From Escherichia coli (GTDB lineage Bacteria; Pseudomonadota; Gammaproteobacteria; Enterobacterales; Enterobacteriaceae), in the NCBI RefSeq assembly GCF_050920415.1, contig NZ_CP169309.1: a stretch of DNA of 64,000 nucleotides. One strand, given 5' to 3'. Below the pieces are notes generated by a model, which saw only the letters and a program-made list of their open reading frames with translations, was not told where the DNA came from and did not search any database. Positions 6,717 through 57,951 of this stretch are shown piece by piece (position 1 is the stretch's first letter; each line of letters opens with the position of its first letter). A program made the position numbers and the translations under genes.

Positions 6717-6761
6717 GCAACATAAAGCTCTTACACATTCAGGAATGAAAGGAATACTGTG

Positions 6762-7199
6762 ATGGACAACAAAATATCAACCTATTCTCCGGCATTTAGT
6801 ATTGTGTCATGGATAGCTCTTGTTGGTGGTATCGTTACCTATCTATTAGGGCTATGGAATGCAGAGATGCAGTTAAATGAAAAAGGATATTATTTTGCCG
6901 TGCTGGTGCTAGGACTGTTTTCTGCGGCATCTTATCAAAAGACCGTTCGTGACAAGTATGAAGGCATACCGACCACCTCCATTTATTATATGACCTGCCT
7001 GACTGTCTTTATTATCTCTGTTGCGTTATTGATGGTAGGTCTGTGGAATGCGACGTTATTACTCAGCGAAAAAGGTTTTTATGGGCTGGCTTTCTTCTTA
7101 AGCTTGTTTGGTGCAGTAGCGGTGCAGAAGAATATTCGTGATGCCGGAATAAACCCACCAAAAGAAACACAGGTTACCCAGGAAGAATACAGCGAATAA
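6762..7199 (+). CDS. yiaA: inner membrane protein YiaA
   Basis: ORF 6759..7199 (145 aa from second Met); hydrophobic, paralogous in architecture to the preceding ORF. Confidence 0.65.
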
Positions 7200-50758: not shown

Positions 50759-52081
<1,323 letters not shown>

Positions 52082-52300: not shown

Positions 52301-53797
52301 ATGCAGGGCACAAAAATTCGACTTTTAGCGGGCGGTTTGCTGATGATGGCCACTGCTGGCTATGTGCAGGCAGATGCGCTCCAGCCTGATCCAGCATGGC
52401 AACAGGGGACGCTTTCCAACGGTTTACAGTGGCAAGTGCTGACCACGCCCCAGCGTCCCAGCGATCGCGTTGAAATTCGCCTGCTGGTTAATACCGGTTC
52501 GCTCGCCGAAAGTACACAACAGAGCGGTTACAGTCACGCCATCCCTCGTATTGCGTTAACGCAAAGCGGTGGCCTTGACGCAGCACAGGCGCGTTCATTG
52601 TGGCTGCAGGGGATCGACCCTAAACGCCCGATGCCGCCGGTAATTGTCTCTTATGACACCACGCTGTTTAATCTGAGTTTGCCCAATAACCGTAACGACT
52701 TGCTGAAAGAAGCGCTCTCTTATCTGGCAAATGCCACTGGCAAACTGACCATCACACCAGAAACCATCAACCACGCGCTGCAAAGTCAGGACATGGTGGC
52801 CACCTGGCCTGCCGATACTAAAGAGGGCTGGTGGCGCTATCGTCTGAAAGGATCAACCTTGTTAGGTCACGATCCTGCCGATCCGCTGAAACAACCCGTT
52901 GAAGCGGAAAAGATTAAAGATTTCTATCAGAAATGGTACACCCCGGATGCAATGACGCTGCTGGTGGTGGGAAACGTGGATGCGCGCTCGGTTGTCGACC
53001 AAATCAACAAAACGTTTGGCGAACTGAAAGGCAAACGTGAAACACCGGCTCCGGTGCCGACGCTTTCTCCGCTGCGTCCTGAAGCGGTGAGTATTATGAC
53101 CGATGCGGTACGTCAGGACCGGTTATCTATCATGTGGGATACGCCGTGGCAGCCAATTCGTGAATCAGCCGCACTGCTGCGCTACTGGCGTGCGGACCTG
53201 GCCCGTGAGGCGCTGTTCTGGCACGTTCAGCAAGCGTTAAGCACCAGTAACAGCAAAGACATCGGTCTTGGATTTGACTGCCGTGTGCTGTATCTGCGTG
53301 CGCAGTGTGCCATCAACATCGAGTCACCAAACGACAAGCTGAACAGCAACCTTAATTTGGTAGCGCGTGAGCTAGCGAAGGTTCGCGATAAAGGTCTGCC
53401 GGAAGAAGAGTTCAATGCGTTAGTGGCGCAAAAGAAACTGGAGCTGCAGAAACTGTTTGCCGCCTATGCGCGAGCTGATACCGATATTTTGATGGGGCAG
53501 CGGATGCGTTCGTTGCAAAATCAGGTCGTTGATATCGCGCCGGAGCAATATCAGAAACTGCGCCAAGATTTCCTTAATAGTCTGACGGTAGAGATGTTAA
53601 ATCAGGATCTGCGCCAGCAGTTGTCGAACGATATGGCGTTAATTCTTCTGCAGCCGAAAGGCGAGCCAGAATTTAACATGAAAGCGTTGCAGGCGGCCTG
53701 GGATCAAATCATGGCCCCATCTACTACTGCTGCCACAACCTCTGTTGCCACGGATGACGTACATCCTGAAGTGACGGATATTCCACCCGCACAGTAA
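52301..53797 (+). CDS. yhjJ: M16-family peptidase-like periplasmic protein YhjJ
   Basis: 498-aa ORF with signal peptide; size and position match yhjJ. Confidence 0.8.
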   Translation: MQGTKIRLLAGGLLMMATAGYVQADALQPDPAWQQGTLSNGLQWQVLTTPQRPSDRVEIRLLVNTGSLAESTQQSGYSHAIPRIALTQSGGLDAAQARSLWLQGIDPKRPMPPVIVSYDTTLFNLSLPNNRNDLLKEALSYLANATGKLTITPETINHALQSQDMVATWPADTKEGWWRYRLKGSTLLGHDPADPLKQPVEAEKIKDFYQKWYTPDAMTLLVVGNVDARSVVDQINKTFGELKGKRETPAPVPTLSPLRPEAVSIMTDAVRQDRLSIMWDTPWQPIRESAALLRYWRADLAREALFWHVQQALSTSNSKDIGLGFDCRVLYLRAQCAINIESPNDKLNSNLNLVARELAKVRDKGLPEEEFNALVAQKKLELQKLFAAYARADTDILMGQRMRSLQNQVVDIAPEQYQKLRQDFLNSLTVEMLNQDLRQQLSNDMALILLQPKGEPEFNMKALQAAWDQIMAPSTTAATTSVATDDVHPEVTDIPPAQ

Positions 53798-53799
53798 TG

Positions 53800-53831
53800 C
53801 CTGATGGTGATGAGTTAGCACAACCATCAGG
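53800..53831. terminator. hairpin between convergent yhjJ and kdgK (candidate bidirectional terminator)
   Basis: CCTGATGGT...ACCATCAGG 9-bp inverted repeat followed by TATTTAT. Confidence 0.45.
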
Positions 53832-53892
53832 TATTTATGGATGAGCTGGATAGAGGGGTAACACTTTATCCAGCCTTTTGCATATGCTGCTT

Positions 53893-54822
53893 TTACGCAG
53901 GCATCGCCTCACGCGGGATAATCGCGCCGCGATACTGAATAACGGTACTTGCGGTCAGGTGCCCGCGTTTCGCCGCATTTTCCGCACTGCCGCCCGTCAA
54001 ACGTACCGCCAGATAACCGGCACTGAAAGAGTCGCCAGCTGCGGTGGTATCGATCACTTTTTCTTTCGGCAGTTTCACCGCCGGAACATCCACTAACCCT
54101 TCGCCAGCAATGGACACCAGGCAAGAATCCGCCCCGCGTTTCACCACCACTTCTTTCACGCCCGCGTTATGGGTGCGCGCAATGACGTCTTCCACCGGCT
54201 GTTGACCCCACAGCGCGTCTTCATCGTCCAGCGTCAGGAAGGCGATATCCGTGCATTCCAGCATTTGCTGGTACACCTGCTGTGTCTCTTCTTTGCTGGC
54301 CCACAGGCGCGGACGATAGTTATTGTCGAAAATTACTTTTCCGCCGTTGGCGCGGCATCCGCGCAACAAAGAAAGCAGTTTCTCGCGGCTGGTCGGGCTT
54401 AAGATCGCCAGGCTAATCCCGCTCAGGTAGAGATAATCGAAATTCGCCAGCTCTTCGCAAATCGCCGCAGATTGCTCGCTCTCCAGCCAGAATTTGGCGG
54501 CGGCTTCGTTACGCCAGTAGTAGAACGTACGTTCGCCGGTGCTGTCGGTTTCAATGTAGTAAAGGCCCGGCAGACGGTTTTCCATCCGTTGGGTCAGGGA
54601 AGTATCAACGTTCTCGCCGTGCCAGGCGTCCAGCATTTGCTGGCTAAAACTGTCCGTTCCCAGCGCCGTTACGTAATGAACGGTTAATGCCGCAGGATCG
54701 ACCTGACGGGCGATATAGACGGAAGTGTTCAGGGTATCGCCGCCGAAACCGCGCTTAACGTCCGCGCCTTTCTCGGAAAGCTCAATCATGCATTCGCCAA
54801 TCACGGCAATCTTTTTGGACAT
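53893..54822 (-). CDS. kdgK: 2-dehydro-3-deoxygluconokinase
   Basis: 309-aa ORF starting MSKKIAVIGECMIELSEKG; PfkB/ribokinase family. Confidence 0.92.
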   Translation of the reverse strand: MSKKIAVIGECMIELSEKGADVKRGFGGDTLNTSVYIARQVDPAALTVHYVTALGTDSFSQQMLDAWHGENVDTSLTQRMENRLPGLYYIETDSTGERTFYYWRNEAAAKFWLESEQSAAICEELANFDYLYLSGISLAILSPTSREKLLSLLRGCRANGGKVIFDNNYRPRLWASKEETQQVYQQMLECTDIAFLTLDDEDALWGQQPVEDVIARTHNAGVKEVVVKRGADSCLVSIAGEGLVDVPAVKLPKEKVIDTTAAGDSFSAGYLAVRLTGGSAENAAKRGHLTASTVIQYRGAIIPREAMPA

Positions 54823-54886
54823 AGTCGTGAACCTGATCTGTAAAAATTAGCGTTAGTTTGCGCTGTGGTGGTTTGCTGGTCAACCA

Positions 54887-54906
54887 TATTAAAACAGTGT
54901 TCCATT
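54887..54906. promoter_or_regulatory. KdgR-like operator upstream of kdgK
   Basis: ATTAAAACAGTGTTCCATTA resembles the KdgR box (AAATGAAACA-N-TGTTTCATTT) at about 15 of 18 positions; about 65-85 bp upstream of the kdgK start. Confidence 0.4.
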
Positions 54907-54977
54907 ATTTTTTTGAGCCAGAACGTATTCCTGAAAGATTCCGTTGTGGAGTGGGGAAATTTAACCCGGCCAGGCGG

Positions 54978-55004
54978 TAAAGTTCTGCCCTTACGCGCCG
55001 ATAA
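54978..55004 (+). promoter_or_regulatory. sigma-28 (FliA) promoter of pdeH
   Basis: TAAAG-N15-GCCGATAA, an essentially perfect match to the flagellar class 3 consensus TAAA-N15-GCCGATAA, about 50 bp upstream of the pdeH ATG. Confidence 0.75.
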
Positions 55005-55052
55005 TCTTTGTCGAGTCCGGGCAGCATCACTTTTAAACACAGGACATCTTTG

Positions 55053-55820
55053 ATGATAAGGCAGGTTATCCAGCGAATAAGCAACCCTGAAGCAAGCATC
55101 GAGAGCTTGCAGGAACGGCGTTTTTGGTTGCAGTGTGAGCGTGCTTACACCTGGCAGCCGATCTATCAAACCTGCGGACGGTTAATGGCCGTGGAGCTAT
55201 TAACGGTGGTCACGCATCCCTCGAACCCTTTACAACGTCTGCCGCCGGATCGCTATTTTACTGAAATCACCGTCAGCCATCGGATGGAGGTTGTGAAAGA
55301 GCAGATTGATTTGCTGGCGCAAAATGCCGACTTCTTTGTCGAGCACGGCCTGCTGGCATCGGTCAATATTGATGGTCCTACGCTCATCGCCCTGCGTCAG
55401 CAACCAAAAATCCTGCGCCAGATTGAGCATCTTCCCTGGCTGCGTTTCGAACTGGTAGAACACATCCGCCTGCCAAAAGACTCAACCTTTGCCTCGATGT
55501 GTGAATTTGGTCCGCTGTGGCTGGATGATTTCGGCACTGGGATGGCGAATTTCTCTGCGCTAAGTGAAGTACGTTACGACTACATCAAAATCGCCCGTGA
55601 GCTGTTTGTGATGCTGCGTCAGTCACCGGAAGGACGCACGCTCTTTTCTCAGCTTTTACATCTCATGAATCGCTATTGTCGCGGGGTGATTGTCGAAGGT
55701 GTGGAAACGCAGGAAGAGTGGCGCGATGTACAAAATTCGCCTGCATTTGCTGCACAAGGCTGGTTTCTTTCACGCCCGGCACCGATAGAAACGCTGAATT
55801 CGGCAGTTCTGGCGCTATAA
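55053..55820 (+). CDS. pdeH: c-di-GMP phosphodiesterase PdeH (EAL domain)
   Basis: ORF 55008..55820; start chosen at MIRQVIQRISNPEASIESLQ (255 aa); EAL domain protein. Confidence 0.9.
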   Translation: MIRQVIQRISNPEASIESLQERRFWLQCERAYTWQPIYQTCGRLMAVELLTVVTHPSNPLQRLPPDRYFTEITVSHRMEVVKEQIDLLAQNADFFVEHGLLASVNIDGPTLIALRQQPKILRQIEHLPWLRFELVEHIRLPKDSTFASMCEFGPLWLDDFGTGMANFSALSEVRYDYIKIARELFVMLRQSPEGRTLFSQLLHLMNRYCRGVIVEGVETQEEWRDVQNSPAFAAQGWFLSRPAPIETLNSAVLAL

Positions 55821-55875
55821 GCTGCCTCATTTTCTGCCTGGCTGGACTATCTTTAGGACTGGCACAGGAAGAAAT

Positions 55876-57951
55876 ATGAGGAAGCGAATGATGAGCAAGG
55901 CAGGCAAAATAACCGCTGCGATTTCAGGGACTTTCTTGTTGTTGATTGTCGTGGCGATCATTTTGATTGCAACATTTGACTGGAATCGACTCAAACCGAC
56001 CATCAACCAGAAAGTCTCTGCGGAGTTGAATCGTCCATTCGCTATCCGTGGCGATCTGGGCGTGGTGTGGGAGCGGCAAAAACAAGAAACCGGCTGGCGC
56101 AGCTGGGTGCCGTGGCCTCATGTGCATGCAGAAGACATCATTCTTGGCAATCCGCCGGATATTCCCGAAGTAACAATGGTGCATTTGCCGCGGGTAGAAG
56201 CGACGCTGGCCCCGCTGGCGTTGCTGACCAAAACGGTCTGGCTACCGTGGATAAAACTGGAGAAGCCCGACGCGCGTCTGATTCGTCTCTCTGAAAAGAA
56301 CAATAACTGGACCTTTAATCTCGCCAATGATGACAACAAAGACATGAATGCAAAGCCGTCTGCGTGGTCGTTTCGACTGGATAATATTCTGTTCGATCAA
56401 GGGCGGATCGCTATTGATGACAAAGTAAGCAAAGCGGATCTGGAAATTTTTGTCGATCCGTTAGGCAAGCCGCTGCCGTTCAGTGAAGTTACCGGATCGA
56501 AAGGTAAAGCGGACAAAGAAAAGGTGGGCGATTACGTTTTTGGTCTGAAGGCGCAGGGACGTTATAACGGTGAACCGCTCACGGGCAAAGGTAAAATCGG
56601 CGGTATGCTGGCACTACGCGGCGAAGGTACACCGTTTCCGGTACAGGCTGATTTCCGCTCCGGGAATACTCGCGTCGCTTTTGATGGCGTCGTGAATGAC
56701 CCAATGAAGATGGGCGGTGTCGATTTACGGCTTAAATTTTCTGGCGATTCGCTGGGTGATCTCTATGAACTGACGGGTGTTCTGCTGCCCGATACCCCGC
56801 CGTTTGAAACGGATGGTCGGCTGGTAGCGAAAATCGACACTGAAAAATCGTCGGTCTTTGATTATCGCGGTTTTAATGGGCGCATTGGCGATAGCGATAT
56901 CCACGGTTCTCTGGTCTACACCACCGGCAAGCCACGACCAAAACTGGAAGGTGATGTCGAATCGCGGCAATTGCGGCTGGCAGATTTAGGGCCATTGATT
57001 GGCGTTGATTCTGGAAAAGGTGCAGAAAAGTCGAAACGGTCTGAGCAGAAGAAAGGCGAAAAAAGCATTCAGCCTGCGGGCAAAGTGCTGCCTTATGACC
57101 GCTTCGAAACCGATAAATGGGACGTCATGGATGCCGATGTCCGCTTCAAAGGTCGGCGCATTGAACATGGTAGTAGCTTGCCGATTAGCGATCTCTCTAC
57201 CCATATCATTCTCAAAAATGCTGACCTGCGCCTGCAACCGCTGAAATTTGGCATGGCGGGAGGCAGCATTGCGGCGAATATTCATCTGGAAGGCGATAAA
57301 AAGCCGATGCAAGGGCGGGCTGATATTCAGGCCCGTCGGCTGAAACTGAAAGAACTGATGCCCGATGTAGAACTGATGCAGAAGACGCTGGGGGAAATGA
57401 ACGGTGACGCGGAACTACGCGGTAGCGGTAACTCGGTGGCGGCGCTTTTAGGCAACAGTAACGGCAACCTGAAACTGTTGATGAATGACGGGCTGGTGAG
57501 CCGCAACCTGATGGAGATTGTCGGCCTGAATGTCGGCAACTACATTGTCGGTGCGATATTTGGTGATGATGAGGTGCGGGTGAACTGCGCGGCGGCGAAT
57601 CTGGATATTGCCAACGGTGTGGCGCGTCCGCAGATTTTTGCTTTTGATACTGAGAATGCGTTGATCAATGTTACCGGCACGGCAAGTTTTGCTTCGGAGC
57701 AACTGGATTTGACTATCGATCCAGAAAGTAAAGGGATTCGGATTATCACACTGCGTTCGCCGCTGTATGTGCGTGGGACATTTAAAAATCCGCAGGCTGG
57801 GGTGAAAGCCGGACCGTTGGTTGCTCGCGGAGCCGTCGCGGCGGCACTGGCAACGCTGGTAACACCGGCGGCGGCGTTACTGGCGCTGATCTCACCTTCC
57901 GAAGGGGAGGCTAATCAGTGTCGGACGATTTTGTCGCAGATGAAGAAGTGA
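55876..57951 (+). CDS. yhjG: AsmA-family protein YhjG
   Basis: 691-aa ORF with N-terminal TM anchor; start could be the Met 5 codons downstream. Confidence 0.8.
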   Translation: MRKRMMSKAGKITAAISGTFLLLIVVAIILIATFDWNRLKPTINQKVSAELNRPFAIRGDLGVVWERQKQETGWRSWVPWPHVHAEDIILGNPPDIPEVTMVHLPRVEATLAPLALLTKTVWLPWIKLEKPDARLIRLSEKNNNWTFNLANDDNKDMNAKPSAWSFRLDNILFDQGRIAIDDKVSKADLEIFVDPLGKPLPFSEVTGSKGKADKEKVGDYVFGLKAQGRYNGEPLTGKGKIGGMLALRGEGTPFPVQADFRSGNTRVAFDGVVNDPMKMGGVDLRLKFSGDSLGDLYELTGVLLPDTPPFETDGRLVAKIDTEKSSVFDYRGFNGRIGDSDIHGSLVYTTGKPRPKLEGDVESRQLRLADLGPLIGVDSGKGAEKSKRSEQKKGEKSIQPAGKVLPYDRFETDKWDVMDADVRFKGRRIEHGSSLPISDLSTHIILKNADLRLQPLKFGMAGGSIAANIHLEGDKKPMQGRADIQARRLKLKELMPDVELMQKTLGEMNGDAELRGSGNSVAALLGNSNGNLKLLMNDGLVSRNLMEIVGLNVGNYIVGAIFGDDEVRVNCAAANLDIANGVARPQIFAFDTENALINVTGTASFASEQLDLTIDPESKGIRIITLRSPLYVRGTFKNPQAGVKAGPLVARGAVAAALATLVTPAAALLALISPSEGEANQCRTILSQMKK

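Follow-up and report, generated by a model that had tools for sequence, protein, structure and literature searches.

A probable KdgR operator next to the predicted kdgK promoter in the Escherichia coli kdgK-pdeH spacer

The short spacer between the divergent Escherichia coli genes kdgK and pdeH (yhjH) contains a sequence that resembles the operator of the repressor KdgR, raising the questions of which protein, if any, reads this sequence and which of the two genes it serves. We analyzed a 64,000-nucleotide stretch of E. coli chromosome, hereafter called the window. RefSeq annotation and a list of open reading frames (ORFs) gave the gene order dctA (50795-52081, plus strand), yhjJ (52301-53797, plus strand), kdgK, pdeH, and yhjG, the last lying 3' of pdeH on the plus strand. 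The kdgK coding sequence (CDS) extends over 53893-54822 on the minus strand, with its ATG at 54822, and encodes a 2-dehydro-3-deoxygluconokinase of 309 amino acids (ORF; RefSeq WP_000037564.1 on a 100%-identical genome stretch). pdeH encodes a c-di-GMP phosphodiesterase, and its RefSeq start is an ATG at 55053 on the plus strand. The 230-bp spacer between the two genes holds the KdgR-type box.

The 2.1 kb surrounding the box were found in 5,422 of 5,426 complete E. coli genomes and were 100% identical to strain MFDS1022581. This region (53800-55900) had at most 98.4% identity to all but one of the 5,422 genomes, and the kdgK-pdeH region of the strain is unusually divergent. In contrast to these divergent surroundings, the 76 bp comprising the operator and promoter core (54860-54935) were 100% identical in 4,090 E. 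coli genomes.

The preliminary description had placed an inverted repeat resembling a KdgR box at 54887-54906 and had put its agreement with the operator consensus at about 15 of 18 positions. The sequence concerned, ATTAAAACAGTGTTCCATTA, is real and is present in a single copy in the window, but its true location is 54888-54907, one base away. The KdgR-box consensus is given as AAATGAAACAnTGTTTCATTT, with the core AATGAAACAnTGTTTCATT, in PMC5559549, quoting Rodionov 2000/2004; an alternative rendering is RWWGAAACGNCGTTTCAKKA (PMC8222616). Compared with AATGAAACAnTGTTTCATT, the 19-mer at 54888-54906 agreed at 15 of the 18 specified positions, exactly the level of matching that had been proposed. 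It was the sole consensus match with three or fewer mismatches in the 64 kb, where 0.03 were expected from dinucleotide-preserving shuffles. The whole box has 21 bp, at 54887-54907 on the minus strand, and is centered on G54897; its sequence, given in the direction of kdgK, is TAATGGAACACTGTTTTAATA, which agrees with the consensus at 15 of 20 positions. It consists of a promoter-distal arm, TAATGGAAC (54899-54907), three central bases (54896-54898, ACT here), and a promoter-proximal arm, GTTTTAATA (54887-54895). The identical 21-mer is found in K-12 MG1655 at 3679333-3679353.

The inverted repeat held up less well. Symmetry is present but weak: the 19-mer has 6 complementary pairs out of 9 and the 21-mer 7 out of 10, and approximately 0.4% of all 21-mers in the window equal or exceed the box in this respect. 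Inverted-repeat detection over the sequence did not report the box, nor did the box fold into a hairpin as single-stranded DNA (minimum free energy, 0 kcal/mol). These two results rule it out as a notable palindrome or structure-forming element. The significance of the box thus lies in its consensus match and its conservation rather than in its symmetry.

The preliminary description had called for a position weight matrix (PWM) scan, which we performed with a leave-one-out matrix rather than a curated one. Candidate loci (kdgT, kduI, tabA/yjgK, ygjV, yeeO, and eda) were chosen from genes named in the literature as having KdgR- or PlaR-type boxes (PMC6958661), and the matrix was built from six symmetrised E. 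coli K-12 MG1655 boxes (kdgT, two at kduI, tabA, ygjV, and yeeO), with kdgK left out. The best candidate for the eda P2 box (L085 4096) scored 12.2 bits; it was not confidently identified and was excluded from training. Since the training sites were the best consensus matches in those loci, the matrix retains some dependence on the consensus. The kdgK box ranked first in the window at 19.5 to 20 bits, compared with 22 to 31 bits for the training sites, and the next-best scores in the window were 14.6 and 8.9 bits. Its score was not low relative to background. Among 100 shuffles of the window that kept local composition, one attained it, and the exact score distribution gave P = 1.3e-7 per position, corresponding to 0.008 expected sites per 64 kb, ~3e-5 in the 230-bp spacer, and ~0.6 per genome. 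Assuming 60% A+T as the background raised these expectations to 0.05, 1.5e-4, and 3.4, respectively.

Across 395 kb of fetched DNA, no position outside the regulon boxes reached 16 bits. The top non-regulon score, 15.7 bits, belonged to AATTAAATCGACGTTTTGTAA inside the K-12 kdgR gene (L089 4831-4851), about 250 nt into the CDS; this match could reflect autoregulation or chance. The second PWM match of the window, AAATGAAAAAGGATATTATTT at 6875-6895 (14.6 bits), was rejected as a candidate: it lies inside a coding ORF (6759-7199), downstream of xylose genes, has no AAC/GTT core, and, being A/T-rich, probably matches by chance. Tandem boxes are common in the IclR family, and we searched the kdgK-pdeH spacer for a second box 18 to 22 bp away, but no other position in the spacer had a positive PWM score.

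The box was also said to lie in the promoter region of kdgK, and its position bears this out: its center is 75 nt 5' of the kdgK ATG and the box is separated by 3 bp from a conserved -35 candidate. This distance of 75 nt from the start codon falls inside the zone of -20 to -80 that is usual for IclR-family sites. The putative -35 element, TTGACC, occupies 54878-54883 on the minus strand, 3 bp 3' of the box, and is followed after a 17-bp spacer by the putative -10 element, CAAACT (54855-54860, minus strand). In our own log-odds scan for sigma-70 promoters on the kdgK strand, based on hexamer frequencies, TTGACC-17-CAAACT ranked first, with 9.3 bits versus 5.7 for the next candidate. A stricter standard scan for promoters and terminators called nothing in the spacer; it rejected this candidate because the -10 element matches at only three of six positions. 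Transcription of kdgK is predicted to start near A54848. Relative to this predicted start, the box would extend from about -59 to -39, with its center at about -49, and would end 3 bp 5' of the -35 hexamer; it would thus stand upstream of the hexamer, not over it. The box overlaps an A/T-rich stretch. The start-site data of Kim 2012 contained no kdgK entry. In the PPTP-seq promoter library, kdgR was among the perturbed regulators, and kdgK was not among the supplementary entries examined.

Conservation of the locus was analyzed by scanning one genome per species, which yielded 80 Enterobacteriaceae kdgK loci from Escherichia, Salmonella, Citrobacter, Klebsiella, Enterobacter, Kluyvera, Kosakonia, Lelliottia, Leclercia, Atlantibacter, and other genera; percentages were calculated over the 78 distinct sequences. 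All 80 loci carried AATGGAAC-nnn-GTTTTAAT, with the best box 83 to 94 nt 5' of the ATG, and the distance of the box to the kdgK -35 element and ATG was fixed in all species. Mean conservation was 96% in the promoter-distal arm (100% for its TGGAAC) and 99% in the promoter-proximal arm, against 74% in the three central bases, where GTT, GAT, GTC, AGC, and others occurred elsewhere. The -35 hexamer was 100% conserved and the -10 hexamer, as CA[A/C]ACT, 97% conserved, compared with 72% for the 17 bp between them and 67% for the remaining upstream spacer. This pattern, with conserved arms on either side of a free center, is the one that a dimeric helix-turn-helix protein leaves.

Several further features of the alignment were observed. 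Box, -35, and -10 form one unit that is nearly unchanged across the Enterobacteriaceae. At G54902 (minus strand), the distal arm has TGGAAC instead of the consensus TGAAAC, and this G is invariant in all 80 species, a hint that selection maintains a half-site that is sub-optimal or has dual specificity. The TGGAAC arm also resembles the IclR/AllR half-site TGGAA. An A7 tract adjoins the box upstream (54908-54914, minus strand); it is 90 to 100% conserved at 54908-54910, with CAAAAAAA in nearly all loci, and may contribute to an extended box contact or to a UP-like element. Around the putative -10 element, the block CAGCGCA[A/C]ACTA (54854-54866, minus strand) is ~97% conserved, more than a weak -10 alone needs, and may harbor an additional signal, for example a discriminator or the site of another factor.

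Taken on all sequence-level criteria, the site belongs to the KdgR-box family, and 54887-54907 is very probably the operator at which KdgR, a repressor of the IclR family, acts to silence kdgK. The preliminary description had likewise proposed repression of kdgK by KdgR, and the rank of the box in the PWM scan, its conservation in 80 of 80 loci, its adjacency to the promoter, the presence of kdgR, and published mutant phenotypes all support that proposal. kdgR, which lies outside the window and was counted species-wide, is present in 5,424 of 5,426 complete E. coli genomes. kdgK mRNA is raised in an E. coli kdgR deletion, and kdgK is called a known KdgR target (Shimada et al. 2019, PMC6958661); kdgK is also over-expressed in a strain without kdgR (Sastry et al., PMC6892915). 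Repression of kdgT and kdgK by KdgR is attributed to Pouyssegur & Stoeber 1974, as cited in PMC6892915. In Salmonella Typhimurium, kdgK was undetectable in the wild type in minimal medium and strongly induced by 2-keto-3-deoxygluconate (KDG), and deleting kdgR made its expression constitutive (PMC4784465); the Salmonella kdgK locus has the same box. In the accessible literature we found no report, by EMSA, footprinting, or ChIP, of E. coli KdgR binding to the kdgK site sequence, and a literal full-text search for the site sequence gave zero matches.

Three further readings of the box were weighed. That it is a functionless chance match is scarcely credible. Its palindrome is weak, and about 0.6 to 3 sites of such score are expected by chance in a 4.6-Mb genome, but only 3e-5 to 1.5e-4 are expected in the 230-bp spacer, and the gene downstream of this one is a known KdgR target; retention of the box at a fixed position in 80 of 80 species excludes chance. 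The conserved block might instead be a feature of the core promoter, its likeness to a KdgR site being incidental. It would then be either a UP element or an alternative promoter with TAATAT (54891-54886) as its -10. In favor of this reading, the block is rich in A and T and occupies about -59 to -39 relative to the predicted promoter, TTTTAATAT is 95 to 100% conserved, and the A7 tract adjoins. We nevertheless consider it quite improbable. Two arms with invariant cores that contain G and C (TGGAAC and GTT) around a variable three-base center are the pattern of a dimeric factor, not of a UP element, and the PWM score of the box is far above background. TAATAT lacks a usable -35 (it would be AAAAAA), is absent from the top sigma-70 candidates, and would leave the invariant TTGACC unexplained.

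The spacer is common to two divergent genes, and the box could in principle control pdeH, linking sugar-acid sensing to motility. This is highly improbable, because the box keeps its register with the kdgK -35 element and ATG, and not with pdeH, in all species, and pdeH has a promoter of its own: a sigma-28 (FliA)-type element, TAAAGTTC-N11-GCCGATAA, at 54978-55004 on the plus strand. This element was the sole match in the window with two or fewer mismatches, versus 0.02 expected, both of its parts were ~92% conserved among the 78 Enterobacteriaceae sequences, and the box center lies ~115 bp 5' of the start predicted there. A sigma-28 promoter agrees with the status of pdeH as a flagellar class-3 gene. 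The program-made ORF for pdeH begins at a TTG at 55008 on the plus strand, rather than at the RefSeq ATG at 55053; the annotated ATG is favored, since a promoter ending at 55004 leaves almost no leader for the longer ORF.

A different question is whether the box is also, or even mainly, an operator for PlaR (YiaJ), a paralogous IclR-family repressor that acts on plant-sugar-acid genes, so that kdgK would be co-repressed in response to galacturonate or ascorbate as well as KDG. PlaR and KdgR share 34% identity, the PlaR box ATnTGAAACnnnGTTCAnTT is almost the same as the KdgR box, and kdgK is reported among the in-vitro (gSELEX) targets of PlaR, with gel shifts stated to confirm the twelve probes tested (PMC6958661). 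The kdgK site agrees equally well with the PlaR pattern ATnTGAAACnnnGTT(T)CAnTT and with the KdgR box, and sequence cannot separate the paralogues. Since the two boxes are nearly identical and kdgK is among the gSELEX targets, the identity of the binding factor rests on mutant phenotypes, and these favor KdgR. In the plaR mutant, yiaK, kduD, eda, glpA, and glpT were raised and kdgK was not listed, whereas kdgK was up in the kdgR mutant; moreover, the PlaR gel shifts needed micromolar protein (PMC6958661). In Salmonella, deletion of kdgR alone made kdgK fully constitutive (PMC4784465). ATTTGAAATCAAGTTTCGCAT, the best PlaR site in the spacer between plaR and yiaK, differs in its core and reached only 12.6 bits with the KdgR-type matrix. 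We therefore regard control by PlaR as possible but rather unlikely, and then with PlaR as a second reader of the box and not as a replacement for KdgR.

If KdgR is the repressor, a dimer, or a dimer within a tetramer, would read the TGGAAC and GTTTTA arms, leaving the three bases between them uncontacted. Because the box ends 3 bp 5' of TTGACC and overlaps the A/T-rich, UP-like stretch, bound KdgR would be expected to clash sterically with the alpha C-terminal domains and sigma region 4 and so to keep RNA polymerase from docking. The promoter blocked in this way would have a weak -10 element (CAAACT). KDG that builds up as hexuronates or pectin are broken down, or as KdgT takes it up, would bind KdgR; the repressor would then leave the DNA, and kdgK would be transcribed. 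KdgK would then phosphorylate KDG, thereby using up its own inducer. The invariant G of TGGAAC in 80 species, the single box, and its place 5' of the -35 element in a UP-like A/T stretch led us to consider a more elaborate, and doubtful, possibility: the box may be a deliberately weakened, tuned site read by both KdgR and PlaR, through which kdgK integrates KDG with galacturonate or ascorbate signals, or one of its arms may double as a contact for the RNA polymerase alpha subunit.

A KdgR operator at kdgK is already known in substance. The link between kdgK and KdgR has been known genetically since 1974, kdgK is a textbook member of the kdg regulon, and its operator has stood as a comparative-genomics prediction for two decades, so that the present finding matters little beyond confirmation of the annotation. 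Only the invariant non-consensus G in TGGAAC, the single box abutting the -35 element, and the overlap with PlaR specificity are mildly notable. This overlap makes the assignment of a regulator to KdgR-type boxes from sequence alone ambiguous.

The kdgK box can be compared with three known systems. Like the operator of IclR (TGGAAAT-N-ATTTCCA), it is an A/T-rich palindrome for an IclR-family repressor, and the TGGAA half-site of IclR resembles the distal kdgK arm. At E. coli aceBAK, IclR bound to box II, which adjoins or overlaps the -35 region, obstructs binding by RNA polymerase. The IclR system differs, however, in its regulator, regulon, and ligands (glyoxylate and pyruvate), and the kdgK arm GTTTTA does not fit the IclR motif. 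The PlaR box (Shimada et al. 2019, PMC6958661) has a near-identical consensus, and gSELEX is reported to have recovered the kdgK spacer as a PlaR target, but PlaR responds to ascorbate and galacturonate, and its main target is yiaK, where the box core is TGAAAT-CAA-GTTTCG. The third system is the gamma-proteobacterial KdgR regulon, whose boxes (Rodionov et al. 2000, 2004) include those of Dickeya/Erwinia pel, ogl, kduI, kdgT, and kdgK and of E. coli kdgT, kduID, eda P2, and yjgK/tabA. As in that regulon, an A/T-rich palindrome of ~21 bp with the form TGAAAC-N3-GTTTCA is found in the promoter of a KDG-pathway gene; the regulon is governed by an IclR-family repressor that KDG releases, and kdgK is one of its classical members. 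The kdgK copy departs from the regulon boxes in the G for A in one arm (TGGAAC) and in being a single box without a tandem partner. Compared with the other E. coli KdgR boxes, nothing about it is different in kind: it stands at the low end of their range, at ~20 bits versus 22 to 31.
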